Part shown: piece by piece, positions 3,501 through 41,084 of the stretch
Layout of the letters: the number at the start of each line of letters is the position of its first letter
Position numbering within the stretch: position 1 is the stretch's first letter
DNA from: an uncultured virus (IMG/VR IMGVR_UViG_3300030109_004112)
Taxonomy: Duplodnaviria > Heunggongvirae > Uroviricota > Caudoviricetes
Direction: 5' to 3' (one strand)
DNA: 64,000 nt
Virus record (IMG/VR): IMGVR_UViG_3300030109_004112
The notes under the pieces: model-generated
Databases searched by the model: none
What the model was told of the DNA's origin: nothing
The model's input: the letters and a program-made list of their open reading frames with translations, nothing else
Program-made: the position numbers and the translations under genes

Positions 3501-6500
3501 AATCGGTACTCCCTTAGCGACTAAAATTAAGATACCAAGAATAAGTAACGACTACAAGCATCTATACATTCTTTGGTCCGATATGAGAAACAATGGTTAT
3601 GCTGACGCTGACGGTATGGGAAGGACGACAGATTTCGGTTTGATGTTCCCCGTTGCTGATAACTATGAAGTATCTCTATACTACGCAGACCAAGACGTTG
3701 ATTACGACGGTCAACTAGATAAATTTGCTGAATTGAAGATAGGGGAGGATGTGGATGTATGGAGTCTAGATGCTACATCGGACCCGGCTTCTAATATTGC
3801 GTGGTCTAAACCCGGCGACTTTTCTAACCCAGTCACCGTTTCTTCCTTGGCAGACTCAAGCGGAAAATTACGAATTAATACCAGTACTACCACCAATGTC
3901 GTAGCCGGGGACTACATACACCTATTCGGAACTGCTAGTCATAATGGGGGCCATCTAGTGGATTCCGTTAGTGCGGGTGCCTTTATCATTACAACCACGA
4001 CCTACTCCTCTAGTTCGGTTTCTGCTACAGGAGGAGCATTCTATTGTAGGACTACTGGCACTGACCAAGACTTGTCCCAATATCAAGACTGGGAGAATAA
4101 GGGGGGAGCGTTTGTTATCATAGACTCAAGTAAGTTCTTCAATCTCAATACTTTGGCTAATGGAGGCAAGGTTGGTTTGTATGCAGGTGCTCGTACAGAT
4201 TTATCAGATTATGTGGCTACTATCAGTGGCTACCCATCTCTTCTAGACAACTATTATGCAGAAGCGATGTCTTCTTACAAAACCACAGCAGGGCCATATG
4301 CACAACACCCTAATCAAAGATGGGTATTGAATGATATTGTCGTTACCAATGAGGACATAAAGAGAGGGCAGTTTTATCTACAGCCAGAATCTACTACAGA
4401 TTTCGCTGATAGCGGAGAGGGTAGGATTATTGGTGTGAGTGGGGATGGAGGAAGAGCCCAAGTATCCCTTGAGAATTTCTACACGTATCAAGGCAAACTG
4501 GGTACTGCGGTGACTGGAACGCTGTCCGGTATGGTCTTGAATGATTCTGATGATGACTGGACCTTAACCCATACGGGACAAACCTTCATTACAAAGAATG
4601 TAAAGGCCGGGATGTTCATCAAGAATACTACCACTCCCATAACTACTGCTATGAGGGGACAGGTCAATAACTTTTTCAGAATTAAAGAGGTGGTTAGCGA
4701 AACACAACTCAAGGTAGAACAGGTGTATTTCATGGCATATAACTCCGCCGAAGAAGAAGATAATGAAGATGAGGGAGGAAACCCCCTTTACTATGACCAA
4801 GAATCGGCTGACTATAACTTAGAGGGCCTTAACGTGAAGGCTATTGCCGCCAGTGTCTCCGCTGACGTTGCGAGGTGGAGTAACGGGGAGAACTACAGCA
4901 TACCAATACAACTATACGGAGTCTTTTCTACTTCTGCTTCGGTGGCGGGCATAGAGAAAGAATCGACCCCAATACAAATAAGAGACTCTATGTTTGAAAC
5001 TTACGAAAATAGCAGCGAGCATGATAAGTGCGTACAGGGTTCATTCCTACAAAGTGGCTACGATAGTGTGGGGATAACTACAACTATAGCCCCACCATAT
5101 ATGTTAAGGCTGATGATGAAATTAAGTGGTTATGCCAAGAGTGTTAACAGTGGTACATATTACGATAGTGATAAATTCAGAAGTTTGTGGTCCGCAGCAC
5201 TATTGGATAATTGGATGCCACCCACTAGACTCAACACAGTTTTCGACATAAACAACGTACCCTATACCGGACAAATGACTACCTACAACAGTACCACAAA
5301 TAATGATAAATACGGGTCTATGGTTGATAGTAGGGGGAAGACAATATGGAAAACGATGAAGGAAATACAGAAGAAGTCGGGAATAGGAGATGAGAACGGC
5401 TTGACTACTTCTTTTTCTTACTTGGTAGGTAGAGACGGGCGGCTTGAATATAGACCAAAATACAATTCTGGTCATGCTTTGAATAGGTCTAACCTCATGA
5501 TAAGTGATTTGAGTACGGATGTTTCCGGTAGGGTTTCTCACGTCAGAGTGTATTACAGAAATGGTCTTGCCTTTGTTGATTTCCCCACTGCTGCAATAGC
5601 AGATACTACTAGGTGGAAGATAGTAGAGAAGCCCGAAATCAATTCCGATATTGAGGCTATTGCCGTGGCCAAACAGACATACAACACCATAAAGAATGCT
5701 AGATTGAGTATTAGTGCCAGTCCAATAAGAGCCACGGATTCAACAGATAAGATGTTAACACATGGGAGATACGGTTATATCTCTGACCCACAAAGGGCAA
5801 TACAAGGTAGAGATGATTATACCTCCGGGGCTGCATATGGAAGGGCTTGGACTAGACTAGGAACTGGTGGTGTACCATTCCCCGGTATGGTGAATGCAAT
5901 AAACGGACACATGGATTCCCAAAACAGTATTTATGACCGTTATGGGGAATCAAAGCAACCAGTAACAAGTAGTACCGCCACATGGAATAATTTCTATTAT
6001 TGGTATGGGTCTAATAGCGTTTCTCACGCGGTACAAATAGTCCACGTACCCAAGAAATGCCCCTTAGATAGTGATGGTACGTCTGAGGATTTGAGAGTAG
6101 CGGTTTGGTTGAAAACGGGACAGAGCGGTACTGATATTGATAACGCAGAGTTCACCATAGGTCTTCTAGATTATTCATTCTCCACATCTTCTTCTGCCAA
6201 GGGAGGAGCGGCACCAACCCTAGTGGCTACACTATCCGGTTCATCCACCGTTGACGTGAAGAATAGTGGTTACTATGAGATATTAGTCCCCTCTACATAT
6301 TCATCATCCCTAAACTCGGCCGGAGCAAAGTTTGTGGTTTCCTTCAATGCTGAGTATTGTAGAGCACTACTAAGGAGAAGGTGTGGTGCTAAGGACTCGG
6401 CGGACCTGCTTAAGAACGCGCACGACGTAACTGGAATAACCACCTTTCCATCCTATAACACCAAGAGTATTTTTCCATTGGGTGTCAGGAAATATACTGA

Positions 6501-7632
6501 AATGTCATCATTTGCTGATGATAGGTCAGAGTGGTATGCTCCGCGCCTACAGGTCGTTTACGATTTGAACTACATACCGGCCACCTATGTTTCATATACT
6601 GATGCCGGACTGAATCTAAATGCGGAATCCATGGTAATACAAAATGTATCGTGGGTCGTTAATGATATGCTAGAAGACGTTACATTGGGTTTGGAAAGAG
6701 ACATGTCTCTGTCTTCCGGAGGGGTTATACCATATCTATTTAGCGACAAGGGGGGCCTACAGGGCTCTGCTACGGGCTCTAAATTAGACCATAACTGGAA
6801 TCCGGTGGGAGGGGAACAGGGCGGCTCTAGTCCCGTAGGTGACTACAAACCATCCGGTACTGCTATTGGTGGTACACCTGAAAACGACACGGATATGCCG
6901 GAGGGAGGCGGAAATCCGTTCAAGTCGTTTGCTATGTCGGGAAGAACTGGCGGCGGCGGTGCTTCTACCTCCCCCGGCTTTTCCTCTAATCAGTTATCAA
7001 AGGCGTTATGGGGCACGGTGAAGGGTCGAATGTCTGTTGATGGGGACCAATACAGCAACCAAGGAGAGTTTTCCATATTAGGACAGAAAAAACCCGGCAC
7101 GACCCCTTCTTCTATGAAACCAATAGAAGGACTAGACGTGTCTGTTTACCCGTCACGAGGGGCAGCCTCGGTTACTGCTGACGGGTTTGCGCTTTCGGCT
7201 TCGACAGGAACGGTGGAGGAGACATCAAGTAACATATCCGAAGTCATGTGCGACTTGACTATCCCGGCAGACGTAATCAACAACGAGTTCGTTATCCACT
7301 CCACTATTTCCCTAGCACCCAAAGCGAAGCACAGCAAGACTGCTGTTCTCTACGTCAATGCTAAGTGCCTTGAAACAGGGAAAAACGTATCGAACACCAT
7401 ACAAATACCAACAAACACCGAAAGGACAAACATAGAGATATTACCTACCACCTTACTTAGTGGTGTTTCTACACCCGGAAATCATTTACAGGTCAAGATA
7501 AGTAGGAATCCGGCAAAGGGTAACGACGATGCCTCCAACTATACCTTAGTCTTGCACGACTTGAGGGTTGGGATAAAGAGAGCGGCATTCCTTTCGGAAG
7601 CAGTCAGCAACCAATTCAAGATTCAAACGTAA
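505..7632 (+). CDS. Very large virion tail/baseplate protein (2375 aa)
   Basis: G/S/T/D-rich beta composition; tail-hub-like segments (WKGVIEKMEVSQ...IELRCTDMLSLL; SYLVGRDGRLEYRP); follows the tape measure gene. Confidence 0.65.
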   Translation: MVRSITTRYNLWMAGYYDDFNNARGIANDNNEPTLDGTYDHTKTHYGNPLNGEAINNPKFRWSYVERAKGTNYDSDLIGSSDETKLLHNKGGFEWLSFDSIRLGSEYWEGRSQLQYPDSHISNKYKYAASGTDGYLLITNGNDTLGKYVIPTGLTDSSFGRGTVTNYTVTNYEASAHDAGGHGDVSSGGAAGDFVQRAHLAGVWLGETTTFAHKDGGTVESPRNIFTPVRSPGGKPFLCVQSYHKVPTSRASVPAVIYDGTLNSRMDGDIFTVRYAVRSFNGETANEGKQPPIVTLKLGYASGPGSTLQNGNTGTPEISWSMNFSTGNGLKDSNYDYYDALYENGTTKSTYTVYDAWIDVDFVMDYTNGKYKVYHDGTEITATNDAAGAYSSGYAMNSGAGVTPSNMYGWEMEAYPNTGDNSVSITLMLDRVALYRPLSDHPDGTILAPIKRMKIDSRVDGFSSCRVEIYDDPSGTGSSVGTSTSDYSHNLTTLFSGSSIDDWLMLVFVGDPTTSVGKLDRPIWKGVIEKMEVSQEERDRVIELRCTDMLSLLDRSIPLWEIGQAGLNDNETSTDFWLQDAQGFNSVMYLGAKPLSTLGNTVGFDVDDSYSEMDNQRTQLGSGHPIQIYNNENETYGPNSIEEQYEGTGIVKGGIGQVKISTTAYTSVEVNTTTGFSASDNVTISRTTSHNATSSISPFSVTTDAISGNQVLNFAQSDLAFTASAARILYAGKYKFVRFGVNYFKNSGFNDIIKDAILANYPSSSDPQDSAYTTFAFSADPGLSPGDVFQYVPYNGTVAELVAPNGYAGKHQVKSIEKIHNYYTTPSQAYIWVVDTYTPCNASETTGTYTSKTGLLSGNDRGKMCSDFGIVSLIPTSLDKDITHRAVHARWMRDLPLSLWFQYHYGITETPNAYLNGNIAATILAGATEIRVGSSGTPIATDTWNAIPSSGIAEIQDTGKIGNPSDKFIYRGKYQSGADKYLIGCQYISRQHATTYSEAIGTPLATKIKIPRISNDYKHLYILWSDMRNNGYADADGMGRTTDFGLMFPVADNYEVSLYYADQDVDYDGQLDKFAELKIGEDVDVWSLDATSDPASNIAWSKPGDFSNPVTVSSLADSSGKLRINTSTTTNVVAGDYIHLFGTASHNGGHLVDSVSAGAFIITTTTYSSSSVSATGGAFYCRTTGTDQDLSQYQDWENKGGAFVIIDSSKFFNLNTLANGGKVGLYAGARTDLSDYVATISGYPSLLDNYYAEAMSSYKTTAGPYAQHPNQRWVLNDIVVTNEDIKRGQFYLQPESTTDFADSGEGRIIGVSGDGGRAQVSLENFYTYQGKLGTAVTGTLSGMVLNDSDDDWTLTHTGQTFITKNVKAGMFIKNTTTPITTAMRGQVNNFFRIKEVVSETQLKVEQVYFMAYNSAEEEDNEDEGGNPLYYDQESADYNLEGLNVKAIAASVSADVARWSNGENYSIPIQLYGVFSTSASVAGIEKESTPIQIRDSMFETYENSSEHDKCVQGSFLQSGYDSVGITTTIAPPYMLRLMMKLSGYAKSVNSGTYYDSDKFRSLWSAALLDNWMPPTRLNTVFDINNVPYTGQMTTYNSTTNNDKYGSMVDSRGKTIWKTMKEIQKKSGIGDENGLTTSFSYLVGRDGRLEYRPKYNSGHALNRSNLMISDLSTDVSGRVSHVRVYYRNGLAFVDFPTAAIADTTRWKIVEKPEINSDIEAIAVAKQTYNTIKNARLSISASPIRATDSTDKMLTHGRYGYISDPQRAIQGRDDYTSGAAYGRAWTRLGTGGVPFPGMVNAINGHMDSQNSIYDRYGESKQPVTSSTATWNNFYYWYGSNSVSHAVQIVHVPKKCPLDSDGTSEDLRVAVWLKTGQSGTDIDNAEFTIGLLDYSFSTSSSAKGGAAPTLVATLSGSSTVDVKNSGYYEILVPSTYSSSLNSAGAKFVVSFNAEYCRALLRRRCGAKDSADLLKNAHDVTGITTFPSYNTKSIFPLGVRKYTEMSSFADDRSEWYAPRLQVVYDLNYIPATYVSYTDAGLNLNAESMVIQNVSWVVNDMLEDVTLGLERDMSLSSGGVIPYLFSDKGGLQGSATGSKLDHNWNPVGGEQGGSSPVGDYKPSGTAIGGTPENDTDMPEGGGNPFKSFAMSGRTGGGGASTSPGFSSNQLSKALWGTVKGRMSVDGDQYSNQGEFSILGQKKPGTTPSSMKPIEGLDVSVYPSRGAASVTADGFALSASTGTVEETSSNISEVMCDLTIPADVINNEFVIHSTISLAPKAKHSKTAVLYVNAKCLETGKNVSNTIQIPTNTERTNIEILPTTLLSGVSTPGNHLQVKISRNPAKGNDDASNYTLVLHDLRVGIKRAAFLSEAVSNQFKIQT

Positions 7633-8348
7633 TCTTCTCGTAGAGCCAAAACAGCCTTAGCCTTATCCCTAGTCATTCCTGATATTTCCATCAGTTGTTT
7701 TTGGGTGGTCTTTTTCTTCAAAAGGTTGGGAAGGCTACCAAACTCTTTCAAAATATCCTCCGCTATTTCAATCGTTATTCCTCGGACAGTGGCCAAAGTC
7801 GCCACTCTATTATCAACCTTCTTCACTCGCCTAAATTTGTGTTGTTTGTAGGCCGACGAATTAATTTGCTTTTGGGTATGCGAATTAACCAAGAAGTCTA
7901 TGAACTCTTCCTTGGTAGCAAATTCCATATACCTTATTTCTGGAAAGCGATTGTAGAATGTAGATTTGAAATGCTTGATGGTTTTCTTCATCCTAGAGAT
8001 TTCTATTGCCATGGCTCGTTTATCCAACTTCCTACCATGCACATACGGTTTAAGTTGTGTTCCATACACTACCAACATAGGACAATCGAAATTATCATGA
8101 AGGTCGTTGAGTTGGTCCACCACTGTCCTTGTCCTACCAATACCCAAGATGCTCCTATATAGGTCGTTTATCTCTTTGGCCTCTATGCCCCAGTCACCTA
8201 TCACATAATCCGCAGACTTCAACCTTCTTACCTGCGCTCTTCCACTGGCTTTGTCTTGGTCGTAATCACCTAAGCGCATTAGCAACCGGTTAACTACCTT
8301 CTCGTTTTCCCTGTCGTCAATAAGAAGCACACTGCGCTCTTGTACCAA
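7623..8348 (-). CDS. XPF/ERCC4-family structure-specific nuclease with C-terminal HhH2
   Basis: Motifs LLIDDRE, ADYVIG, IEAKEINDL (ERKxxxD-like), QL; C-terminal VRGIT...FGSL...LMEISGM helix-hairpin-helix. Confidence 0.85.
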   Translation of the reverse strand: MVQERSVLLIDDRENEKVVNRLLMRLGDYDQDKASGRAQVRRLKSADYVIGDWGIEAKEINDLYRSILGIGRTRTVVDQLNDLHDNFDCPMLVVYGTQLKPYVHGRKLDKRAMAIEISRMKKTIKHFKSTFYNRFPEIRYMEFATKEEFIDFLVNSHTQKQINSSAYKQHKFRRVKKVDNRVATLATVRGITIEIAEDILKEFGSLPNLLKKKTTQKQLMEISGMTRDKAKAVLALREDYV

Positions 8349-10690: not shown

Positions 10691-12913
10691 TTATAACCAT
10701 ACCGTAGTACCCAATCCATTCATAGCGTTGAACAGTGGTTGCATATCCCACTTAGCCAAAACGTAGTAGGGCTCTAATTTCTTCACTATGAATCGCTTGA
10801 CCAGTATCGAGAATCCTATTTCCTCTATGCCATCTATTTCAGAGGGCTCATCAAATGCTATGTATTTCCCCTTCGTATTGATTGTTACCTTGAAGAAGGA
10901 CCCCTTTCGATAGCCCTTGCCTAGAAATTCGTTAGCCCAAGCAGCCCCCGCACTGGGTCCCGACAACTGTTTGTAATTACCCAAGTCCTTTTTCAATTCC
11001 CCCTTCATACACAAATCATCAACTGCGATGTTTCCCTGCATAACGTCATCTATGAGGTCACGGACGGCACTGGTAACTTCCTCTTCTCGCAATCCACTAA
11101 GCATCCCAGTGATTACATCACTCATAACAGTTTTCATCACCTTCGGCATTCTCGATTGTTTCATTTCTATGCCTTTGTAATATGGTTTGGGTTCGTGAGT
11201 CTTCCCATCCGTCCATTCCACAAGTCCGGCATATCTATTCTTTGCTAGGATTATCATACGCGAACACCACTTCTCAAACTCTACTTCTATGGGAGTCATT
11301 TCGGCGTTGATAGAGGCCGTCTTTGTCGTTCCGGCCTGTGGGGTAGGGATGATGCAAAACACGCTGTCTGTGTGGCCGTAAATGACCCGCATTCCCCTCT
11401 TCTCAGCCTCTTCCTTTAGTCTTCCCAAAGTAGCCCTGCTTGTGTAGGTAATTGCCGATGCAACCTCGGGGTGATAGAGCCCATACTTGGCATCTCCGGC
11501 CACCCCATACATAGAGGCTACTAGGGATTTACAAGCAAACTGCATTGTGTCCCATTTATCATAGTTTTCGGGCTCTGTTTTCATCAAAGACTTGTAGTGG
11601 TTGCGGAGATTGGTCATATAATCCATTTGTCTAACCAACAGTCCCGGCTCACCCAAGTTGAATCTAGTACCATTACCACAATCAACCCCGGTTTCATCCA
11701 AGGTGTCCCAAGAAATATTACTCTGTCTAGCATTACTATGGTACATGGCCTTAACATCTAGGATTCCTACGTTATCATAGATACCCGGAACTGGCTCCAT
11801 TACTTCCGCCCCCGAATATTTCACCTTATCGAATTGTGGTCTTGTTGGTATTCTCTTTTCAAATTGTTTATCTCTAAGAGCAAGAATGGTAAATGTTTTT
11901 GTAACGAATGGCGTGGAGCGAATATCGCATTGAACCAAGTGCTGAACGGATGTGTAATAATTGAGCGCATTTATCTTGTTATCCAACATGGGGAGTAGTC
12001 TAACGTCTTGTCTACAATAGTGAATGTATGTCGCTATATCGCTGTGGTATGTATCGTGTCCGTCCGGTAACTCTACCTTGTCCTTCTTCAATACCTCTAA
12101 AGCAACATCACTCAAACCGTAGGCCGGGAGTTTCCCATTCTTTATTTCCCACAGTTTGGAAAACGCTATCATCAAATCTATACAATTCCTTCCCACTATG
12201 GGTTGGTCCCAATCCCCATAATTGTAATTGACTCTAGCATAGGGGGATAAATCATATGGATTGAGGTGGTTCTTCCTCATCCTCTCCATTATTGTCTTAA
12301 TGTCCGCTCCCGTAACAAACCAACCTGTTATGATGTCGGGGTCCTGTCTCTTCATGTGCTTTACGAAATGTTGGAGCATTTCTCTTTCGGTATTGAACGC
12401 GAGGGCGGGAGTGCTATACTCGTAGTCCCCTATCTTGTCGTATTTTCCAGCCGCGTATTCCGGGTGTACGAACCAAACGTATTCGTTGTCTGTGAAATTA
12501 TCATACACCACCATGACCCTTAGTTGCTTGGTCAGAGGGGACCATTCACAATCCAAATACCATATCCTATGGTCGTAGTTCGGTATGGGTTCATGACCGT
12601 CGTTACATCTATCGGACAAAACCCTGTTGACGTAGGGTATATTTCCTTCCCATGTCTCCATTCTCTTATTGAGGTAAGAAATATCCTCCGGACTAGCCAC
12701 TGTTATCTTACTTAATGGTTCACCATAGACACCCTCGTAACCATCCTCCACCTTTACTGCTTCCGCTAGATGCTCACTATCGTCCTCGTGAACGAAGCAG
12801 TACGGCCAGTAGCCGCCTATAGTCATAGTCTGACGCTTACGCTCTTCATCACGGAAGCGCACAACAACGTCGCGCCCCCTACCCCTCGTTACTATCAACC
12901 TATCGCCTTCCAC
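10691..12913 (-). CDS. polB: Family B DNA polymerase with 3'-5' exonuclease
   Basis: ExoI YLDCEW, ExoII GWFVTGADI, ExoIII YCRQDV; Pol motifs DVKAMYHS, KSLVASMYG, YGHTDS, KNRYAG, KGIEMK. Confidence 0.93.
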   Translation of the reverse strand: MEGDRLIVTRGRGRDVVVRFRDEERKRQTMTIGGYWPYCFVHEDDSEHLAEAVKVEDGYEGVYGEPLSKITVASPEDISYLNKRMETWEGNIPYVNRVLSDRCNDGHEPIPNYDHRIWYLDCEWSPLTKQLRVMVVYDNFTDNEYVWFVHPEYAAGKYDKIGDYEYSTPALAFNTEREMLQHFVKHMKRQDPDIITGWFVTGADIKTIMERMRKNHLNPYDLSPYARVNYNYGDWDQPIVGRNCIDLMIAFSKLWEIKNGKLPAYGLSDVALEVLKKDKVELPDGHDTYHSDIATYIHYCRQDVRLLPMLDNKINALNYYTSVQHLVQCDIRSTPFVTKTFTILALRDKQFEKRIPTRPQFDKVKYSGAEVMEPVPGIYDNVGILDVKAMYHSNARQSNISWDTLDETGVDCGNGTRFNLGEPGLLVRQMDYMTNLRNHYKSLMKTEPENYDKWDTMQFACKSLVASMYGVAGDAKYGLYHPEVASAITYTSRATLGRLKEEAEKRGMRVIYGHTDSVFCIIPTPQAGTTKTASINAEMTPIEVEFEKWCSRMIILAKNRYAGLVEWTDGKTHEPKPYYKGIEMKQSRMPKVMKTVMSDVITGMLSGLREEEVTSAVRDLIDDVMQGNIAVDDLCMKGELKKDLGNYKQLSGPSAGAAWANEFLGKGYRKGSFFKVTINTKGKYIAFDEPSEIDGIEEIGFSILVKRFIVKKLEPYYVLAKWDMQPLFNAMNGLGTTVWL

Positions 12914-15086: not shown

Positions 15087-16288
15087 GCATCCCACCCCTC
15101 TTCGTTATCCATAGACATCCCACCTACGGACTCAACTTGGTCAAAGGCCCACCATCCGTTGACGGAAAGCCTCATGTCGCCCTCGTTTCCTCTCCAAGTC
15201 TGCCCAACAAGCATAACCTTGGTTCCTACTGCAAAGTCAACTAGGTTCTCTTGAGAAGCAGGGACATATACGTCCACAGTATCAGCCATGGAAGTCATAT
15301 CTAGGTCGGCGCAAATCATCACGCATCCCCCCTTGTCCCTAGGGTCTATGTGTATTACCTCTGTTGGTACGACCAACATTCTATCATACCAGCCAGCCTG
15401 TTCGCGGTACGTGTTGTAGTAATTCTCCAACCCTGCTAGGGAAGGTAGTGTGTCCTCCGGCAAGTATGTCGGCATCAGTCCTAGAGCCGACTGACCATCT
15501 CGGTAGATGATAGGTGGTTCAGGGAATAGAGTAGACTTGTCCTCGTCTGCAACAAACTCGGTCACCCCGTCCTTGACGTAGGCACTGTCTCCGTTCCTAG
15601 CCGGACGTAGGGAAACCCTACCCGGTATGAAAGTTGGGAACTGAATATCTGCTCCCTTTCCGTTGCCACTGACTCTGATAGGCTTCCACTCTCCACCGTC
15701 TCCCTCTTGCCGGCCAAAGAATAGACATACTCTCTCCTTCTCATCCTGTGGGCGAGCCCTACCGAACTTGAAATTAGCATCTCCGCTTGGGAAGGTTGGG
15801 TTGTTCTTGTCCCACACCACATAGAAGTGGGTGTTGGAGTCTAGTGCCATGGTGTGCTTTGGTAGGCTATCTACCTCAGACGTGCCTCCGAAGTCATCCC
15901 TTGATGAGCGGGTGTAAGTACCGTCGTGGTTGTTCTCAAAGATGACTACTGCGCCTTGCTCTACTAGGGCTGTCTTCATTCCCTCGTCTGCCCCAACCAA
16001 TTGGTTCTTCATCTTGTTGTAGAGAATCTTTCCCCACTCCTTTGGGCGCGGGACGCTTACAAACATTCCCTCAAACCATACCGCACCGCTACGGCGCATA
16101 CTCGCCTGTTCGTTATTTATCTGCCTTGCTGCTACACGCATAGAAAGAATGTCTATGTCCTCATCGGACTTGCCCGCGTTCTTCCACGCGGCCCCTTGGT
16201 CCTCTCGGACCGAAAGCGACTTTGCCTTAAGCCGCTCCAAATCTATCCCTATACTGTTAGCCATGTTGTTCAATATCTGCTCGTTCAT
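15083..16288 (-). CDS. RPA-like ssDNA-binding protein (OB folds)
   Basis: OB-like C-terminus (FAVGTKVMLVGQTWRG...LSVNGWW), acidic tail, position in replisome operon. Confidence 0.55.
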   Translation of the reverse strand: MNEQILNNMANSIGIDLERLKAKSLSVREDQGAAWKNAGKSDEDIDILSMRVAARQINNEQASMRRSGAVWFEGMFVSVPRPKEWGKILYNKMKNQLVGADEGMKTALVEQGAVVIFENNHDGTYTRSSRDDFGGTSEVDSLPKHTMALDSNTHFYVVWDKNNPTFPSGDANFKFGRARPQDEKERVCLFFGRQEGDGGEWKPIRVSGNGKGADIQFPTFIPGRVSLRPARNGDSAYVKDGVTEFVADEDKSTLFPEPPIIYRDGQSALGLMPTYLPEDTLPSLAGLENYYNTYREQAGWYDRMLVVPTEVIHIDPRDKGGCVMICADLDMTSMADTVDVYVPASQENLVDFAVGTKVMLVGQTWRGNEGDMRLSVNGWWAFDQVESVGGMSMDNEEGWDA

Positions 16289-17262
16289 ATTCTACCTCTC
16301 CGGTTATTTTCCCCTATCTTCACGGGGTTATAAGTATCGCGGTCAACACACATTCTCACGAAATTGTGCCCCACTATTTCCTCATGTACCCCCGCTATCA
16401 AGTCCCGCTCGCTTGTTGTTGCGGCGTTCACGACTCTCATTTTTGAGTCCGGACTTGCGCTACTACTAATAGCATAGGTGAATATATCTCTTATGGTGTT
16501 CCTAAGTGAGTCGGGCCTTTGTTGTACCATTTCGGCCGCACCCTCAAAGTCTCGTTCCTTGAAGCAAAGAGTTAGGTAGGCTTCGGAATGGAAATCCCTT
16601 CCCTCCAAACCATTCAACCAAGCATCAGCATCTTCATGACCTGACGCTAGTTTGATACTGTGGTATGCCTGTAAAGCGTTTATGCTCCTTCGTAAATCTC
16701 CACTGTGGTTCCTACATATCCTATGTAGGTTGGTTTCTGTTATCTCGACACCCTCTGCTCCGCATATGTGTCTCAGTCTAGTAAATGCATCCTCGTCACT
16801 TATTGTTTGGAATGTCAGAGTCTCGCACCTAGATAGAAGATAATCACTAATCTTACTCTTGTCGTTACAAGTCAAGATGAACGTCCCCTGTGAATTTTCA
16901 ATGACTCCCTTGAGGGCGGATTGTGCCGCAGGGGTCAACTGGTCAGCCTCATCAAGAAGGAACACCTGTTCCCTAACTCCGTTACGGGACATCGGTAGTA
17001 ACTGCTCCTCAACAAACTCTATCCCCCTAGTTTTCTTGCTACTAGCATTGAAGATGTGTATAGGCCAACCGGCCTCCTTAGCCAAAACTATCGCTGTGCT
17101 TGTCTTTCCAGTTCCCGGTTCCGTGCTGTAAAATAACCAGTGTGTTGATAATCTATTTTCCCTTCCCTGTTGAGAATGGGTGAACAGACGTGAATGCACG
17201 TCCGACTGTCCCACAATATCCTCTAGTCTCTCCGGCCTATATTTCTCCGCCCAATTCTTCAT
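16285..17262 (-). CDS. rfcS: Replication factor C small subunit (clamp loader)
   Basis: WAEKYRPERLEDIVGQ, PGTGKT, FNAS, LLDEAD, AQSAL, SRC, GDLRRSINALQ. Confidence 0.93.
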   Translation of the reverse strand: MKNWAEKYRPERLEDIVGQSDVHSRLFTHSQQGRENRLSTHWLFYSTEPGTGKTSTAIVLAKEAGWPIHIFNASSKKTRGIEFVEEQLLPMSRNGVREQVFLLDEADQLTPAAQSALKGVIENSQGTFILTCNDKSKISDYLLSRCETLTFQTISDEDAFTRLRHICGAEGVEITETNLHRICRNHSGDLRRSINALQAYHSIKLASGHEDADAWLNGLEGRDFHSEAYLTLCFKERDFEGAAEMVQQRPDSLRNTIRDIFTYAISSSASPDSKMRVVNAATTSERDLIAGVHEEIVGHNFVRMCVDRDTYNPVKIGENNRRGRI

Positions 17263-17905: not shown

Positions 17906-18141
17906 TCTACCTTCTCCTTGTAATCCTTATGACTTCTAGGTAAAAGATGTCTCCTTCTTTCTGCCAAGTTATCTATCAATTCTGCAACCTTTGTTGCGCC
18001 TTTGTTGAAGCGACTCAAAGATATGTCGTCGCGTTCGGGAACCATCTGTTCCTTCAACATATCTAATGGTATCTCTCTCAAGACATACTTGAGAATTTCG
18101 TATTCCACTATGGGTATCTTCTGTATCTTTGCCTTCGCCAT
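17902..18141 (-). CDS. Hypothetical protein, probably leaderless
   Basis: ATG lies 41 nt from the conserved promoter core at 18182. Confidence 0.6.
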   Translation of the reverse strand: MAKAKIQKIPIVEYEILKYVLREIPLDMLKEQMVPERDDISLSRFNKGATKVAELIDNLAERRRHLLPRSHKDYKEKVE

Positions 18142-23912: not shown

Positions 23913-24719
23913 TCAACTTATTTTGTCTCTAGGCCCACAGAATGATAAAAACAATTCGTGTTCTATCCTGTTTTGCTCGTGGAGAGATAGTTTCGGGGAC
24001 ACTCCCCTAAACTGCGTGTTGGTGTGAGGCTTACGTATATACCAGTGCATAGCAAGCGCGGAAATGTAATTGGAAATAGTTTCGGATAACAAGTCCTTGC
24101 TTATCTTGCTAGGCTCCTTGTTTATGATAGTGTAGGGCAACGGCTGTACCGTCAAGCCATTGGGCAGTGAGTACCTTCCCCTGACCATGACCCTCTTGCC
24201 TAGAATTAGTATTTGTAGGCTATGATTCTCGTCGCTGTTTATCTGAATCGTAGGGTAGTTTGCTACCAAGTGAGAATCGTTCTCAGTGGTAACAGTTGTG
24301 TTTAGGAATGAGATACTAGCGTTGGGCCAGTGGGGAAAGATGAAGTCCTGTATCTCCTTTCTGAATGCCTTGTAAGTCTCGCTCCCCGCCGCCTTTCCTA
24401 CCGTCACAATTTCCCCATCAGTGTGGTAGATAGATTCCTCTACACCGAACAGGAAACTGACTGAGTTTTCAGTCGCTTCCTCTAGGTAGTCCTCAATCAA
24501 CTCCTTCATAGGAATCATAGAAGACATATGTATTAATTCTGATTTGGTGAGTCCGTAACCACCCTCATTACTACATAGGTTCAATATACTCTTTACGGTA
24601 TTCCACCTAACCGCATCCAATGTAAAGAAGCCGTCCACTTCTAAGAGGATTCTTAGGGGGTGTGGGTCTGCCCTTACAACCTTCACTGTTGATGCCTTGA
24701 AAGGGCCATAGTATCTCAT
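23913..24719 (-). CDS. Hypothetical protein
   Basis: ORF; start refined to MRYYGPFK by ATGA overlap. Confidence 0.6.
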   Translation of the reverse strand: MRYYGPFKASTVKVVRADPHPLRILLEVDGFFTLDAVRWNTVKSILNLCSNEGGYGLTKSELIHMSSMIPMKELIEDYLEEATENSVSFLFGVEESIYHTDGEIVTVGKAAGSETYKAFRKEIQDFIFPHWPNASISFLNTTVTTENDSHLVANYPTIQINSDENHSLQILILGKRVMVRGRYSLPNGLTVQPLPYTIINKEPSKISKDLLSETISNYISALAMHWYIRKPHTNTQFRGVSPKLSLHEQNRIEHELFLSFCGPRDKIS

Positions 24720-24895
24720 ATATCCCACACCACGTCTGCTTCTGCTCCACACTGATGACACACTAGCGTACCAAAAATATGGTGGTACGTAGATTGCTCA
24801 TGCGTACAATCGAAAAATTTCTTCATTCTCGCGGCGTATGCCTTGTCGTCTGCTATCTCTCTTGCCTTTCCCTGTATTCCTTCTTCGTCTTCCAT
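24716..24895 (-). CDS. Small Zn-finger protein (59 aa, not in ORF track)
   Basis: Manual translation MEDEEGIQ...DCTHEQ...LVCHQCGAEADVVWDI. Confidence 0.6.
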   Translation of the reverse strand: MEDEEGIQGKAREIADDKAYAARMKKFFDCTHEQSTYHHIFGTLVCHQCGAEADVVWDI

Positions 24896-24896
24896 T

Positions 24897-25205
24897 CTAA
24901 GTCCTCCTTTCTACCCAATCGGTATATTGTTTGATGTTTTCCATTTTGTAGAGTTTTCTCCCGTACTGGGGTCTTCCGTCGTTTGTTAGTGCGCCGTATT
25001 TCTTAGCGTCTTCCATGCCCTGTATCTTGATGAAGTTGATACCTCTAGCACCTCTCAGTAACATAGTCACTTGGTTGGTACTAGATGCTGTCCTCACAAG
25101 ACCTGTCTCATTCAATCGGAATGTGATTTGAGAAGCGGTTAGTACCTCCCCGTCGGAGAGGATAGAACCAATATGTCTTCTAGTCATTATGTGTCGCCTA
25201 CTCAT
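24897..25205 (-). CDS. Winged-helix (DUF3860-like) protein
   Basis: ILSDGEVLTASQITFRLN...SSTNQVTMLLRG; GAGGT RBS. Confidence 0.6.
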   Translation of the reverse strand: MSRRHIMTRRHIGSILSDGEVLTASQITFRLNETGLVRTASSTNQVTMLLRGARGINFIKIQGMEDAKKYGALTNDGRPQYGRKLYKMENIKQYTDWVERRT

Positions 25206-25223
25206 ATTATTACCTCGTTAGTT

Positions 25224-25309
25224 TGGTGGGGGAGGAGGGAGGTGCTGTGGGGATGGTCAAGCACCCACCTCGTCAGCCGTCAACCGGTCCTTCTAACCCT
25301 CCCCTCCCC
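25224..25309 (-). ncRNA. Candidate structured CCA-ended RNA 2 (86 nt)
   Basis: 5' GGGGAGGGGAGG pairs with 3' CCTCC(CT)CCTCCCC, followed by CACCA; internal GTGGG/CCCAC stem. Confidence 0.5.
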
Positions 25310-25325
25310 TTGTGTCTGTTTTGTT

Positions 25326-25446
25326 TGGTGGAGGGGGGTGTGGTGAGATGGAGAGAAGTGAAAAATCCGCCAAGAAAAAGAAACAATCCTTCTCACCTGA
25401 GATGGTTAAACCACCCGTTCCATAGTTGACCCTACTTCCCCCCTCC
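25326..25446 (-). ncRNA. Candidate structured CCA-ended RNA 1 (121 nt)
   Basis: 5' GGAGGGGGG pairs perfectly with CCCCCCTCC followed by ACCA; internal GGTGAGA/TCTCACC stem; 5' end at the inferred start site of the adjacent promoter. Confidence 0.6.
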
Positions 25447-25467
25447 GTAAATGCCTCGATGCCTTAG

Positions 25468-25495
25468 TTATTAAACCTTTTGTTTCGGTGAGTTT
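25468..25495 (-). promoter_or_regulatory. Conserved viral promoter element, copy 2
   Basis: Minus strand AAACTCACCGAAACAAAAGGTTTAATAA. Confidence 0.75.
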
Positions 25496-25835
25496 ATTTA
25501 GACTTCACCCTTTGTCGTACTGCGGCAAACCGCTTCACTAAGTCCCTATATGACTTGGTGGAGGTTTGTGTTCTAGGAGCGGCTACTCCTAACCAATTGT
25601 ACCCGTCGCTGATTAACTGTTCTAGTGTCTGTATTTGTTCCTCACAGTTATCCGTCTTGCTAATGCGAGACGATTTGTAATTATCTACGTCGTTATCATT
25701 TTTAGTCCCCACGAAACCACACTGGGCACACACCACTAATGGTAACTCTAGGTTTTCGATTTCGTAGATAGTGCCGTCATCACACCAACAAGTTCCATAA
25801 GTCTTCATGTTTGGGGGTGGTCTGTATTTCTTCAT
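25494..25835 (-). CDS. Zn-ribbon protein
   Basis: CWC...CAQCG. Confidence 0.55.
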   Translation of the reverse strand: MKKYRPPPNMKTYGTCWCDDGTIYEIENLELPLVVCAQCGFVGTKNDNDVDNYKSSRISKTDNCEEQIQTLEQLISDGYNWLGVAAPRTQTSTKSYRDLVKRFAAVRQRVKSK

Positions 25836-25836
25836 C

Positions 25837-26334
25837 CTACTCTTCCCCCTGCTCCACTAAGTCCCATGCTTCATCTGTAAATGGAAAGTCGTGAGACACT
25901 ATACACACCGGGGGTATTGGTGAACTATTATCAGGGAAAGAAAGTTTCTTGTATTCTTTGCCAAGAACCGAGAATCTATCAGGGTAGTGGTGTTGAAAGT
26001 AAGATGAACGGATGGTGTACATCTGCTCTGCGTCTAACAGTAATGAATGGGTGATGCTTCCTTCATTCTCCAATTCCTTATCGAAGCGAATAAAATATCT
26101 TAGCGCAATTTTACTCAAATAAGGTTTATAGACAATTAGCACAAAGGGTTGCGGGCCATATACGGCAAAGGTGTTACTTAGAGTCGCTGACGAAGTATGC
26201 ACCGTAAATACAGGTGGTTCACCGGCAACAGAGTCTTTCTCGTATGTCCTGAATGTGGCGATGGCCGCGTTTAATAACGTAATCTTTTCCTCCGTTGTTT
26301 CGGGCCATATATCTTGGTAATGCTTCACACTCAT
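25837..26334 (-). CDS. Hypothetical protein
   Basis: ATGA-coupled, GAGGTGA RBS. Confidence 0.55.
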   Translation of the reverse strand: MSVKHYQDIWPETTEEKITLLNAAIATFRTYEKDSVAGEPPVFTVHTSSATLSNTFAVYGPQPFVLIVYKPYLSKIALRYFIRFDKELENEGSITHSLLLDAEQMYTIRSSYFQHHYPDRFSVLGKEYKKLSFPDNSSPIPPVCIVSHDFPFTDEAWDLVEQGEE

Positions 26335-33647: not shown

Positions 33648-33672
33648 TTCACCTTCTTATTTTTCTATCTTG

Positions 33673-33702
33673 GAGGGAGGGCCGGCTGACCGACCCCCCC
33701 TC
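33673..33702 (-). terminator. GC-rich 13-bp hairpin downstream of ardC
   Basis: GAGGGGGGGTCGG-TCAG-CCGGCCCTCCCTC. Confidence 0.5.
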
Positions 33703-33711
33703 GTTCTAGTC

Positions 33712-34773
33712 TCACTCCTTGGCCTCCACCCCGAAGTATTCGGGGAGTAGGTACTCGCAAACCTTCTGAGCCTTGGAAGCCGCCGAGAAGATAAACTTCT
33801 GTCCGTCGTCCTTGGCATCCTTGATGGCTTTCAGCCATGACTTCATGTACGCCGCGTGGTTTTCCATATTCTCCTCTATGGAGGTATCTTCGATACCTAG
33901 GGCTATGCACATCATCGAGGCCGACATCTCCGCCACCAATTCCTCGTAAGCATAATCCTCACTACCGAACCGACCCGACATATCTCTATCTAGTCTTTCG
34001 GGATGTCCCGTCCAGTGAGCCATCTCATGAGAGATGGTAGCACATCGACCCGTCGGGGTCTTGAAGTGCTTCCTTTCCGGTACTTGGATATAATCTACTG
34101 CCATGTTATAGAAGGCGGAGCCTCCTCCCTCGCGGAAGTCTATCTTGTGTTCCTTCAAGAGAGAATCAATATGCTCCTCTGCTTCGGTCTTGGCCGTTTC
34201 GGTTTCCTTCTTGGTGGGCTTCTTCTTCTTGGGAATCGGCAGCCCTGTCTGAGACTTGTTGAACACCATGAAGAACCGCTGAATCCAAACGCTCCGCGTC
34301 TCCCTCTTCTTTTCTCCGGTCTTTTCGTCTTCGACTTCGTTTGTGTAGGATTTCATTTCGTAGAAGACAACCGGGAAAGATGCCTGTCCCTTCTTGACCC
34401 CATAGTAAGCCGTAGGCTTCTTCCATGTTCCGCCATCCTTCTTCGTGACTTCCTTGAACTCACCCTTCTTGACGGCATGCTTCGCTGACTCCTTCTTCCA
34501 AAAGTCGAAGGTTCCCCACTCATCACTCTTGAACCCCTCACTAGACTTGAATAACATCAAAGACCATACATTTATGCCCTTGTAAGGGGTCTTCTTTGAA
34601 CCGGTTGATGCCCTGATGGGTAGCCCATCAAGTAGTGCTCCGGCTCCGTCCCATGGCTTTTGCCAAGGACGGACGCCCCTCTTGAGTTGGTCGGTTATTA
34701 CACCGGCCACCTTCTTGTGAGCGTTCTTGGCTCTCTCTTTCGCTGTCATCTTTTTCACTTCCTTTGCTATCAT
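33712..34773 (-). CDS. ardC: ArdC-family antirestriction / ssDNA-binding protein with zincin domain
   Basis: RPWQKPW, YKGINV, WGTF, FMVFNKSQ, AFYN..DYIQVP, HEMAHWTGHPERLDR, YAYEELVAE. Confidence 0.9.
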   Translation of the reverse strand: MIAKEVKKMTAKERAKNAHKKVAGVITDQLKRGVRPWQKPWDGAGALLDGLPIRASTGSKKTPYKGINVWSLMLFKSSEGFKSDEWGTFDFWKKESAKHAVKKGEFKEVTKKDGGTWKKPTAYYGVKKGQASFPVVFYEMKSYTNEVEDEKTGEKKRETRSVWIQRFFMVFNKSQTGLPIPKKKKPTKKETETAKTEAEEHIDSLLKEHKIDFREGGGSAFYNMAVDYIQVPERKHFKTPTGRCATISHEMAHWTGHPERLDRDMSGRFGSEDYAYEELVAEMSASMMCIALGIEDTSIEENMENHAAYMKSWLKAIKDAKDDGQKFIFSAASKAQKVCEYLLPEYFGVEAKE

Positions 34774-38597: not shown

Positions 38598-39600
38598 TTA
38601 TGTTACGTTTGGGGTTTTTGGGGTTATTATGTTACGTTTAGATAGTTTTTATGTTACGCATATAAGATATTATGTTACGCACACATCGGAACATCAGCAC
38701 TCTTTTATGTTACGCGACCTTTTTTTGCGGTTCTGTCTTTTCTGTTACGCCGACGGTCCGAGTCTTATGTTACGCTCACTGCTAGCCTACGAAATATATG
38801 TTACGTTTTCACTGAGAAAAATATCACAACTGGTAACTTTATGTTACGCATACGGACCCTAGGAGCGATGGGGTAACATAAACTCTGCGTCTGAATCTCA
38901 AAAATATGTTACTCCCTCCCCCCACCCCCCGCTTCTTTTTCTCGATAGGGGGTTTTCGTAACATAATCTTGTTGCCTGTGCGTAACATAACGAACCGGTT
39001 CGGGTAACATAATTTTGCCGGAGCAGCGAGCGTTATGTTACGTTTTGGGGGGGTGGTTTTTTTCGACCGGGGCAAACTCGCCAGTTTGCGTAACATAATG
39101 CTTGTCGTAACATAACGCTACACCGTATTAGTTTTTTATGTTACGCCTCTCTTTTTTCTGAAATTGGGCTTTTTGTAACATAACGTAGTACGGCTTATAA
39201 GGTTTGCCCGTAACATAACGTTCAAAAAAAGTAACATAAAATTGGCTTTCAGTAAAGCGTTATGTTACGTTTTCGGCCTCGCTCGCTCACACCCCCCCTC
39301 TCAGGCCCAAAAAAAATGAGTACTTAAAGGGCGTAACATAACGCTTCACTGAACCCCAAAATTATGTTACGTTGGGTTAATTAATAACTGAGCGTTATGT
39401 TACTCCCCCAAACGACCTAAAGACTATATACCCCCTAGCAGATGATTAACCCCGGACGCGCTTGAAAATTATGTTACTCCCTAGCCGGTGGTTCAGGCGG
39501 GCTCACGTAACATAACGCTTCACCATATCCCAAAATTATGTTACTCCAACACCCTTACCACGGAGACGCAAAGTGGGTTCGCGTTGAAAATTATGTTACT
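38598..39600. repeat. Main TTATGTTAC(G/T) box array, about 29 copies in both orientations
   Basis: About 18 forward and 11 reverse copies counted by eye in a 1-kb non-coding gap between divergent transcription units. Confidence 0.92.
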
Positions 39601-39610
39601 CCATGATATC

Positions 39611-39628
39611 GGCAAAGGTATAAGTACT
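39611..39628 (+). promoter_or_regulatory. BRE/TATA promoter for rightward genes
   Basis: GGCAAAGGTATAAGTACT about 25 nt before ATG 39649. Confidence 0.55.
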
Positions 39629-39648
39629 AGTGAAAAACAGGGAGATTC

Positions 39649-39930
39649 ATGGGAGGAAAGCAAACCATAACATTGAGCAATGTTGAAATGAGTATCGTAT
39701 ACCACGCGCTACTCACGAGACTAAGCGAGATGATGAGAGAAGACGACAAGAACGAACGCCGAGAGAGGGAGGTGGCAGAGTTGACGGCCATAGTTGACAG
39801 TATGCAACAGCAGATGGAAAGCAACTGGTCGGAGATAGAGGCCGACGCCGCCTTTGAGAGAGAGACGGAGGGAGTAAGACTCCTATCGTCAATCCCCGCC
39901 TTCGGAGACAAGACGGAGGACATGGCATGA
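39649..39930 (+). CDS. Helical hypothetical protein
   Basis: ORF after TATA; ATGA-coupled to next gene. Confidence 0.6.
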   Translation: MGGKQTITLSNVEMSIVYHALLTRLSEMMREDDKNERREREVAELTAIVDSMQQQMESNWSEIEADAAFERETEGVRLLSSIPAFGDKTEDMA

Positions 39931-40214
39931 GTACCAAGGAAACTAGGGACATGGTATACCTTCAGATGGTACTATCGTTCATAGAAACGAGTACCCCCGC
40001 GAAGTACGCGGAACTGCAAAACACAGTAGAGCAAATGCAGACCATCGACCCAAGACACGCTGAGATGTATGCGACGATTGGGAAGACCTTGGAGACACTG
40101 CGCGACAAACTGTGGACGGGCGTGGACGTGAATGGAGAGGTGAGTTGGATGGTAAAGTCACTATCCAAGAGCCAAAAGAGGACGTTGTACGGGGAGGACG
40201 GCGAAAAGGAGTAG
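39927..40214 (+). CDS. Hypothetical protein
   Basis: GGAGG RBS; followed by hairpin. Confidence 0.6.
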   Translation: MSTKETRDMVYLQMVLSFIETSTPAKYAELQNTVEQMQTIDPRHAEMYATIGKTLETLRDKLWTGVDVNGEVSWMVKSLSKSQKRTLYGEDGEKE

Positions 40215-40225
40215 GTCAGACTAAC

Positions 40226-40253
40226 GGGGGTCGGCTGGTGGTGGCCGGCCCCC
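40226..40253 (+). terminator. GC-rich hairpin after 39927..40214
   Basis: GGGGGTCGGCT-GGTGGT-GGCCGGCCCCC. Confidence 0.5.
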
Positions 40254-40317
40254 CAACAATATGTTACGCAACAAAAGAAAGAAAATATGATAAGGAGTGA
40301 TAAAGACGAAAGGATGA

Positions 40318-40518
40318 GTGAAACGTATGACAGCGAACACTGAAGAAGAAATGACGAACGGAGATATAGTGGCTTGTTTAGCATGCCACTGTTTGATTGC
40401 CTTGGAGGAGGGTTACTGGCAGAGAACCACGATAGCCAAGTACCCTATGCCCAACTCGGTTGGGACCTTAGTAGCGTTCTGTGATGAATGCAATATGGTC
40501 GTTGAGGTGGGCTACTAG
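40318..40518 (+). CDS. Small Zn-finger protein
   Basis: CLAC...FCDEC; start uncertain. Confidence 0.45.
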   Translation: MKRMTANTEEEMTNGDIVACLACHCLIALEEGYWQRTTIAKYPMPNSVGTLVAFCDECNMVVEVGY

Positions 40519-40527
40519 ATACTAAAA

Positions 40528-40691
40528 TATGTTACGCACCACTTGGATAAATCCGGACTAAAAATCCGTTTTCTAATCAAACATATGTTACGCGGTTTTT
40601 TACTAGACGATATGTTACGTCTCTTTTTTGTAGGCATTATGTTACGCCTCTTTTTCTGTGAGTGATATGTTACGCTTGGCGTTATGTTACG
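40528..40691 (+). repeat. TATGTTACG direct-repeat cluster (6 copies, plus one at 40260)
   Basis: Copies at 40528, 40584, 40611, 40638, 40666, 40683. Confidence 0.9.
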
Positions 40692-41084
40692 TCCCAGTGA
40701 CCACTAATGAACCGAAGGTTGTATAGTGAAATGACCAACCTAATTGTGAACACTGGTAGGTTAGAACCTGCTTCTGTGATACTGCGAAATTGGCCGAATT
40801 TCCGCTATCGTGACCCGCGAATTATCGTTGATTTGCTTATAAGGGCCGGACTTGAAAAATGGGTCCGGAAATGCGAAATCACCGGGAGAAACTACCCAAT
40901 GGCCCCAAACACGGCGACAGGTGCGCCAAATCGCCCAATGCAGCCAAATAACCCATATTATGCACATATCGCGTATGTCGTGAATATGGGGTCAGATGGG
41001 CAGGGGGCATATAGTCTTTCGCTGTTCATGCTCACCCCCGCATCAAATCCGGCGTTTATAGGGGGGTCACGCGTAAGAGGAGGC

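Follow-up and report, generated by a model that had tools for sequence, protein, structure and literature searches.

The locus

The DNA analysed here is a stretch of 64,000 nucleotides (nt) of the genome of a metagenomic tailed virus (IMG/VR record IMGVR_UViG_3300030109_004112; Caudoviricetes), referred to below as the window. Its minus strand carries, at 25224-25446, a pair of structured, non-coding modules, RNA1 and RNA2, which lie between a promoter and a gene for a protein of 102 amino acids (aa) with a predicted winged-helix fold. The coordinates of the individual features are collected in Table 1.

The two modules follow a common plan, in which a G-rich 5' arm is paired with a C-rich 3' arm and the helix is followed by an unpaired ACC. 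In RNA1, the 5' arm GGAGGGGGG is closed by the 3' arm CCCCCCTCC, directly followed by ACCA; the interior contains a GGTGAGA/TCTCACC helix, seen in the minimum free energy (MFE) fold, together with inner hairpins and a U-rich tract. RNA2 has GGGGAGG on its 5' side and CCTCCCC on its 3' side, followed by CACCA. Both copies end in CCACCA, and ACCAAAC(A/T)AAC follows both. Because the RNA1 tail and linker, ACCAAACAAAAC, resemble the sequence ACCAAACTAAC that follows RNA2, a tandem duplication appears to have occurred, and RNA1 and RNA2 look like diverged copies of one module. The gap at 25206-25493 holds no minus-strand open reading frame (ORF) of at least 40 aa; on the plus strand, it is overlapped by two ORFs (57 and 68 aa). 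An earlier note on this DNA had described a promoter-driven, non-coding, structured region with two related modules and no credible minus-strand ORF. That description holds, and every statement it made on the coordinates, arms, inner helix and tails of RNA1, the linker and RNA2 is correct.

Table 1. Positions of the features discussed in the text. Positions without a handle are those of the window; SD, Shine-Dalgarno sequence; BRE, transcription factor B recognition element
Feature	Position	Strand	Description or basis
Upstream promoter motif AACTCACCGAA	25484-25494	minus	one of nine functional-looking copies
TATA-like box TTTAATAA	25468-25475	minus	preceded by an A-rich, BRE-like stretch
Predicted transcription start	25446	minus	C/G initiator step, base 1 of RNA1; from promoter offset
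RNA1 module	25326-25446	minus	121 nt including tail; sequence, MFE fold, alignment, homologue L238:1872-1932
RNA1 closing helix	25438-25446 with 25330-25338	minus	
RNA1 tail	25326-25329	minus	ACCA
Linker	25310-25325	minus	16 nt, A/C-rich
RNA2 module	25224-25309	minus	86 nt including tail; homologues L281, L355, L282
RNA2 closing helix	25301-25309 with 25229-25237	minus	
RNA2 tail	25224-25228	minus	CACCA
SD of downstream gene	25212-25216	minus	GAGGT; read from sequence
Downstream gene	24897-25205	minus	102 aa, winged-helix fold; first gene of the leader transcript
Family-B DNA polymerase (PolB) gene	10691-12913		
Clamp loader gene	16285-17262		RFC/gp44-like
Short nuclease gene	7623-8348	minus	ERCC4 and helix-hairpin-helix
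Second motif, G002	G002:49088-49296	minus	same as L188:11193-11401
Second motif, L162	L162:2338-2486		
Second motif, L164	L164:168-354		
Second motif, L181	L181:7228-7350		
Second motif, L197	L197:11469-11740		
Second motif, L270	L270:484-570		
Second motif, L285	L285:2040-2170		
Second motif, L288	L288:1340-1470		
Second motif, L302	L302:2215-2355		

Promoter and predicted start of transcription

The motif AACTCACCGAA, with one mismatch allowed, has 11 matches in the window, all of them on the minus strand, where 1.16 are expected and the largest number in 100 shuffles was four. An A-rich stretch and a TATA-like box follow nine of the 11 and are absent at 9176 and 26671; the promoter copy that the earlier note had placed in the gap belongs to the nine. 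At an offset of 48 from the motif start, a pyrimidine-purine step is found in all nine promoters, whereas any other offset between 30 and 61 carries such a step in at most five of them (background frequency of the step, 0.237). Thus, the archaeal-type pattern of an A-rich BRE-like stretch, a TATA-like box and an initiator step at a fixed distance is present in each of the nine promoters, which yields a usable promoter model for the virus. A scan of IMG/VR with this promoter pattern found 46 stretches, with multiple copies confined to the virus's own record.

Because the initiator step at the fixed offset falls on G25446, the transcript most likely begins with the G arm of RNA1. The spacing from the TATA-like box TTTAATAA to G25446 is 21 nt, and both box and spacing are identical in L238, a related locus described below; the sequence around the predicted start, TTAC/GGAGG (the slash marks the start), is kept in L238 and in a divergent strain, X3. 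In the three minus-strand genes at 18141, 32698 and 36662, offset 48 coincides with the A of the ATG, and their mRNAs are probably leaderless. The earlier note had already remarked that the 5' G of RNA1 shares its promoter offset with these three start codons, an agreement that is confirmed here and extended to all nine promoters. Two of the three leaderless candidates have GGAGG or AGGAG upstream of the predicted start. Five other promoters have predicted leaders of 15-23 nt, which begin just 5' of the SD. The predicted leader of 241 nt in the gap is unique among the nine; the remaining eight measure 0-23 nt.

Relatives of the modules

The folding energies of the modules are not sufficient to establish the elements, although RNA1 folds better than its shuffles (z -2.26), nor is the number of 9-bp stems followed by 1-2 nt and CCA, which is 17 in the window and 0-13 in 20 shuffles and owes its longest matches to the repeats at 38830-40700. 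For this reason, the reality of the elements rests on their homologues. The same homologues bear on one alternative, namely, that the region consists of chance low-complexity G/C tracts or encodes a small plus-strand protein (ORF 25223-25429, 68 aa). A stem plus CCA by itself is common, RNA2 folds no better than its shuffles (z -0.97), and the ORF exists; nevertheless, the arms covary among homologues, the ORF is not conserved, since the corresponding region of L238 is only 61 nt long, and it opposes a long block of minus-strand genes. We regard this alternative as very improbable and, judging from the sequences, already largely refuted.

L238 was found by a metagenome scan with the upstream 113-aa protein (70% identity). 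It contains one 61-nt module at the syntenic site, flanked by homologues of the same two genes, in the order box TTTAATAA, 21 nt, TTAC/GGAGG, module GGAGGGGGAG...CTCCCCCTCC, AACAAAC..., and ATG of the homologue of the 102-aa protein (85% identical). RNA1 and the L238 module have in common the 5' arm, CAAC, GTTTCTTTT and the 3' arm, with pair 9 changed from G-C to A-U. RNA1-like hairpins with TCTTTT(N)CAGGTTG or variants of it occur in L162 and L164 (arms GGAGGGGAG/CTCCCCTCC), L159 (GTTGGGGGGAT/ATCCCCCCAAC) and L285 (GGGGGAGAGAAC/GTTCTCTCCCCC); L162 has three modules in a row (E1, E2 and E3) and is near-identical to L164. RNA2 aligns with the modules of L281, L355 and L282, 52 of 121 columns being invariant; these three read GGGGAGGGGG...CCCCCTCCCC, followed by ACCAAC, an SD and an ATG. 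An IMG/VR scan with GGGGAGGGGN{50,80}CCCCACCAA returned 55 stretches, only four of which are relevant (L319 and L324, equal to L281 and L282; L355, which is new; and L351, the virus itself), while the rest are unrelated sequences. Two more pairs of a G arm and a C arm, at most candidate members of the family and possibly coding, were noticed at L210:3932-4015 (GGGAGAGGGGG...CCCCTCTCCC) and L257:4137-4203 (GGAGGAGGGG...CCCCCCTCCTCC).

Strain X3 retains GGAGGGGGG(G) immediately after TTAC and has a different spacer 5' of it. In the half of RNA2 that X3 covers, the listed changes U70->C and A67->G keep the pairing with G44 and U47; relative to the window fold, one G.U pair becomes G-C and one A-U pair becomes G.U. 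The first hairpin of RNA2 has another, longer sequence in X3 after a shared GGGTTA. Contigs from runs X4, X5 and X7 match the window exactly, and none of them spans 25260-25466. No RNA run is listed among the sequencing runs that contain the stretch.

The segment that separates the 285-aa gene from the Pyr_excise-like gene is hypervariable among syntenic loci, and several searches found the virus itself only. This was the outcome of blastn-short and nhmmer against 80 syntenic loci, of nhmmer with RNA1 and RNA2 against the earlier related loci and the 80 later ones, and of IMG/VR scans with the two flanking proteins. The window segment 24000-27000 had no blastn match among phage records, and the RNA region gave only short promoter-like bits (E at least 0.02) against 16 related virus records. 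No clear module is present in the syntenic upstream regions of three homologues of the 102-aa protein (G007, G002 and G005). A model of the family, R1, run with default filters, recovered three members only in 1.42 Mb; it never recovered the RNA1 of the window, and scored RNA2 at 8.6 bits, its reverse strand at 9.8. Taken together, the module is a real, conserved and undescribed structured RNA element of related marine viruses. Literature searches on magroviruses and on non-coding RNAs of archaeal viruses brought up no account of such elements for these viruses; a term search of PMC5434244 found no occurrence of promoter, non-coding, TATA or hairpin, and tRNA figures there only as two ordinary viral tRNAs.

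Covariation of the closing helix

Maximal closing helices span 8-13 bp across the modules, and 10 of 13 rows start with G. In alignment A10, whose ten rows include the near-identical L162 and L164, the closing helix has nine pairs, five of which are changed on both sides, and 98.9% of the cells pair. This level of covariation was reached by none of 500 shuffles, and sliding the partner by 1-3 columns left pairing at 69-80%. Each break in the G arm is mirrored in the C arm, and the named strand has five G.U pairs. When the 3' arms of ten elements were shuffled, full pairing was obtained 2152, 4436, 455, 28, 5, 7, 30, 1977, 670 and 284 times per 20000 trials. The named strand outscored the reverse strand under the model in all seven top-scoring modules, a comparison that is made without the two weakest matches, L162 E1 and RNA2, the latter scoring higher on its reverse strand. 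It should be noted that the MAFFT alignments A1, A2 and A6 placed the G and C arms out of register; for this reason, RNAalifold counts were set aside. Conservation and covariation in relatives, which the earlier note had proposed as its check, were thus found, with a terminal helix that covaries. Judged by the refuting conditions that the note had set, its idea is not refuted.

These data also bear on the possibility that the modules are palindromic or mobile elements acting at the DNA level, akin to miniature inverted-repeat transposable elements (MITE) or repetitive extragenic palindromic (REP) sequences, with the arms serving as terminal inverted repeats and no role for RNA. As in REP and MITE elements, complementary arms of 8-13 nt bound the modules, which are intergenic, patchily present in a hypervariable region, arranged in tandem (two copies in the window, three in L162) and present or absent between close genomes; another G/C hairpin lies at 33672-33732. 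A 13-nt direct repeat, AGATTCACATAAG, stands on both sides of module E1 of L162 (L162:2118-2233, tail ACCA). The otherwise near-identical L164 (1-64) lacks this module, a difference that may reflect an insertion or, alternatively, tandem duplication and subsequent loss. In contrast to REP and MITE elements, however, nhmmer and the model found, in the window and five complete relatives, local copies and none that are dispersed, and flanking direct repeats occur at L162 E1 only. Moreover, several genomes keep the modules at a fixed position relative to promoter and SD, the helices contain G.U pairs, model scores are strand-asymmetric, and sequence motifs in the loops are conserved and strand-specific. 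In our opinion, a mobile element is quite improbable.

The ACC tail

The sequence that follows the closing helix is ACCA in RNA1, L281, L282 and L162 E1, C-ACCA in RNA2, ACCU in E2 of L162/L164, L285, E3 of L162/L164 and G002, AACA in L238, and GCCCACC in L159. Thus, 11 of 13 rows have A-C-C after the helix (9 of 11 if each near-identical pair is taken as one), and the fourth letter is A in five modules and U in four distinct modules. A CCA end, on which the earlier note had built its proposal of tRNA mimicry, is not conserved: L238, the only homologue found at the syntenic site, has AACA, and the family is split between ACCA and ACCU.

The remainder of that proposal is not supported either. 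As the earlier note itself stated, RNA1 and RNA2 are without a canonical T-loop or anticodon arm, and no cloverleaf was found. ARAGORN reported 0 genes and no transfer-messenger RNA (tmRNA) in the window and 0 genes in 66 related loci (11 + 55). Rfam 15 gave 0 matches at gathering scores in the window and in seven related loci, and its sub-threshold matches in 25000-25700 (E up to 10) included no tRNA, the best being junk microRNA models with E 0.27-9. The suggestion that the RNAs are decoys for anticodon nucleases is not supported, because an anticodon arm is absent. Several other classes were rejected as well: one-piece and two-piece tmRNA (none by ARAGORN or Rfam), bacterial-type intrinsic terminators (no minus-strand site in 24700-26000, and A/C-rich sequence after both modules), riboswitch aptamers (interior too variable), C/D or H/ACA guide RNAs (boxes not seen by eye) and G-quadruplexes (fewer than four clean G tracts).

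What the tails may retain is a role in processing. On this account, small RNAs with acceptor-stem-like ends would be excised, or the modules would act as punctuation that defines an mRNA 5' end, with RNase P, and perhaps also tRNase Z or the CCA-adding enzyme, reading the helix and the ACC. The recurrent unpaired A-C-C, the closing helices of 8-13 bp with their frequent initial G, and the alike 5' flank of modules located away from a transcription start (ACAUAA/G or ACACAA/G) are consistent with it. In RCCA, both C residues are contacted by the RNA of RNase P, and the C4 RNA precursor of phages P1 and P7 is a substrate of the same enzyme. The conserved ACC leaves room for processing by tRNA enzymes. 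Of the RNAs with tRNA-like ends that come to mind, namely, viral tRNA-like structures, MALAT1-associated small cytoplasmic RNA (mascRNA) and the C4 precursor, the modules share the helix, mostly starting with G, and the single-stranded ACC(A) after it. They differ from these RNAs, and from tRNA itself, which was also rejected, in having no D, anticodon or T arm and a helix of 8-13 bp rather than 7. In addition, the closing helix has its stacked hairpin after the 5' arm, whereas in tRNA such a hairpin goes with the 3' arm. Five modules apparently lie at a transcription start, so no 5' cut would be needed there, and the tails run straight into SD and ATG instead of ending the RNA. Excision or punctuation is, for these reasons, rather unlikely. 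If true, it would mean that the tRNA machinery matures viral mRNAs and frees stable small RNAs, and that ACC is kept because RNase P reads it.

Base pairing within the module offers another source of constraint on the tail. Just 3' of the U-rich tract lies a loop (NGGN) that could base-pair with the beginning of the tail (NCCN), as in UUGG:CCAA of RNA1, AGGU:ACCU of L162, UGGGC:GCCCA of L159, UUGGU:ACCAA of L281 and AAAGUUGGU:ACCAACUUU of L282. The match between each loop and its own tail was outdone by only 10 of 720 permutations. Compared with shuffled tails, the duplex of L282 (9 bp) was equalled in 0 of 500 cases, that of L281 in 6 of 500 and, at weaker significance, that of L159 in 30 of 500. 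The loops of L281 and L282 show complementarity to part of the SD as well as to the tail. A pseudoknot may thus contribute part of the conservation of ACC.

Position relative to genes and a possible leader function

The modules of the window and of L238 begin at the predicted start of the promoter, and in three more (L281, L282 and G002) the first G is preceded, at a distance of 21 nt, by an A/T-rich 8-mer. Six modules, those of L238, L281, L282 and G002, RNA2 of the window and E3 of L162, end 17-24 nt 5' of a start codon; a clear SD lies between module and ATG in window RNA2, L281, L282 and G002 and is weak or absent in L238 and L162 E3. For RNA2, 23 nt separate the closing helix from the start codon (22 if the helix is taken to include the first C of the tail), and the SD lies within this spacer. 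The G002 module lies upstream of a clamp-loader gene. Because five modules could start with the transcript and six end shortly before a start codon, we favour, tentatively, the reading that RNA1 and RNA2 constitute a cis-acting structured 5' leader, of 241 nt, of the operon led by the gene of the 102-aa protein. Both the position between start and ATG and the covarying structure agree with a structured leader; the exceptions are given below.

The 102-aa protein itself has no match in Pfam or PHROGS. Its AlphaFold2 model (mean per-residue confidence, pLDDT, 83.3; predicted template modelling score, pTM, 0.72) resembles, by Foldseek, chains of the PadR, ArsR/SmtB, MarR, RTP and TFIIE types (probability up to 0.99, E 0.03-0.16), and the model thus suggests a small winged-helix regulator. 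BLASTP found no similarity between it and the protein 3' of the L282 module.

If the leader reading is correct, transcription from the archaeal-type promoter would start at G25446, and the first bases of the primary transcript would be the G-rich arm of a G:C-rich helix of 9 bp. A fully base-paired mRNA 5' end would be expected to resist decay initiated at the 5' end. Translation of the winged-helix gene could be set by the SD-like G arm GGAGG and the anti-SD-like C arm CCUCC (followed by ACC), with which the true SD would compete. In some members, the tail would pair with the conserved loop (NGGN with NCCN) into a pseudoknot. The ACCA tails would then represent leader spacer or part of the pseudoknot, not free 3' ends.

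The U-rich tracts of the hairpins allow for a different function of the same transcript, in which they stop archaeal RNA polymerase, so that the modules, as attenuators, terminators or insulators, terminate upstream operons and limit how much read-through reaches the regulator gene. RNA1 contains the tracts TTTCTTTTTCTT and ATTTTT; TCTTTT is present in L238, L162 and L159 and conserved in RNA1-like members. The modules of L159, L162, L164 and L285 come just after the stop codon of a conserved gene of the 329-aa type, and the promoter in the window adjoins the stop codon of the upstream gene. Against this account, a stop within the loop would render the covarying 3' arm useless, the loops of L281, L282 and L285 hold T3 at most, no bacterial-type terminator exists on the minus strand at 24700-26000, and neither module is followed by a T run. 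We consider attenuation or termination unlikely.

The leader reading has its own difficulties. The promoter is labelled archaeal because of its architecture, and the place where the transcript starts, its ends and its lack of processing are deductions from sequence. Some modules do not lie in leaders: that of L159 stands between a stop codon and the next promoter, that of L285 is about 90 nt from the next gene and without an adjacent SD, and E1 and E2 of L162 are internal, with no SD adjoining. Alignment A10 was fitted to the model, and three of its ten rows are reverse strands of the same elements. Besides the poor z score of RNA2 given above, the MFE fold of the whole leader (z -0.47) couples arms of different modules (1 with 4, 2 with 3). 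T5 tracts such as those in RNA1 could stop archaeal transcription early. Finally, in RNA1, RNA2, L238, L164 and L285, shuffled tails pair with the loop as well as the true tail does; because pairing is not significant in these five modules, the pseudoknot explains the ACC only in part.

Comparison with known systems

To our knowledge, very few structured leaders that act in cis have been described for archaeal-type transcription systems and their viruses, in which leaders are mostly short or absent. The comparators for the favoured leader reading are the 5' untranslated region of E. coli ompA, the leaders of B. subtilis aprE and ermC, and the leader pseudoknot of phage T4 gene 32. The viral modules resemble such stabiliser stem-loops and structured leaders in having a helix at or beside the first transcribed base, a location right upstream of SD and start codon, a proposed action in cis and a possible pseudoknot. 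They differ in the archaeal-like promoter context, in their larger, multi-hairpin and sometimes tandem build, in their SD-like and anti-SD-like arms and in the recurrent unpaired ACC; in addition, some of them are downstream of genes, and a role in stability or translation is here a prediction from sequence.

Expression platforms of translational riboswitches and RNA thermometers operate through competition between SD, anti-SD and anti-anti-SD strands. Similarly, strands of the GGAGG and CCUCC types close the viral module beside the true SD, and in L281 and L282 the loop could engage the tail together with part of it. Unlike those platforms, the modules have an interior too variable for a ligand pocket, both in length (61-117 nt) and in sequence, and a closing helix that is far more stable than any SD pairing; any switching is putative.

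The significance of the element, in our opinion, lies in a module that has no Rfam family and carries a conserved single-stranded ACC 5' of a winged-helix regulator. It would provide a handle on how an early regulator is controlled in abundant, uncultivated marine viruses, be it through mRNA stability, translation, attenuation or processing by tRNA enzymes.

The virus and its host

The same virus is also represented by two IMG/VR contigs and one ENA contig. The structural genes of the window include those for a terminase, a portal protein and a collagen-repeat fibre. The virus belongs to a large marine clade, with the large terminase subunit (TerL) at 66-78% identity in 157 IMG/VR stretches and complete genomes of 65-72 kb. 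Among named viruses, the best full-length matches to its PolB are haloarchaeal tailed viruses, at only 22-24% identity. No relatives of TerL were found among 185,579 prokaryote species genomes, with either a single-protein or an alignment query, and a PolB search for the host produced no informative names, one match being labelled as a Legionellales metagenome-assembled genome. The clade probably consists of archaeal viruses.

The 241-aa protein that combines an ERCC4 nuclease with a helix-hairpin-helix has a short XPF-like architecture. This architecture is more characteristic of archaea and eukaryotes than of bacteria and hints at the domain of the host. On the plus strand, a 2375-aa ORF (505-7632) is without a Pfam match at E up to 0.01.

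Other structured and repeated sequences

The hairpin at 33672-33732 (minus strand) has 13 bp of G/C pairs, GAGGGGGGGTCGG...CCGGCCCTCCCTC, in the same style of G run and C run as the modules and without an ACC tail. It is located right after the stop codon of an ArdC-like gene and just 5' of the next SD and ATG.

The segment 38830-40700, about 1.9 kb long, is largely without long ORFs and contains dense arrays, in both orientations, of an 11-13-nt word, GTAACATAACG, and its complement, TTATGTTAC. With 14 families of direct repeats and 76 inverted pairs, this segment resembles a replication origin or a group of sites to which a regulator binds.

A second, larger RNA motif, which has no Rfam match, occurs in the relatives and not in the window (sites in Table 1). 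Its core consists of GGCG(A/T)GGCTA, a hairpin, TAG(C/T)CCAAAACC, a variable part and GGATAAGCC, and it is mostly found after the conserved gene of the 329-aa type or directly 5' of a start codon. Its hairpin covaries (CUAC:GUAG, CUAAC:GUUAG and CUAG:CUAG), as does its outer GGC:GCC helix, in which UGGC:GCCA alternates with GGGC:GCCC.

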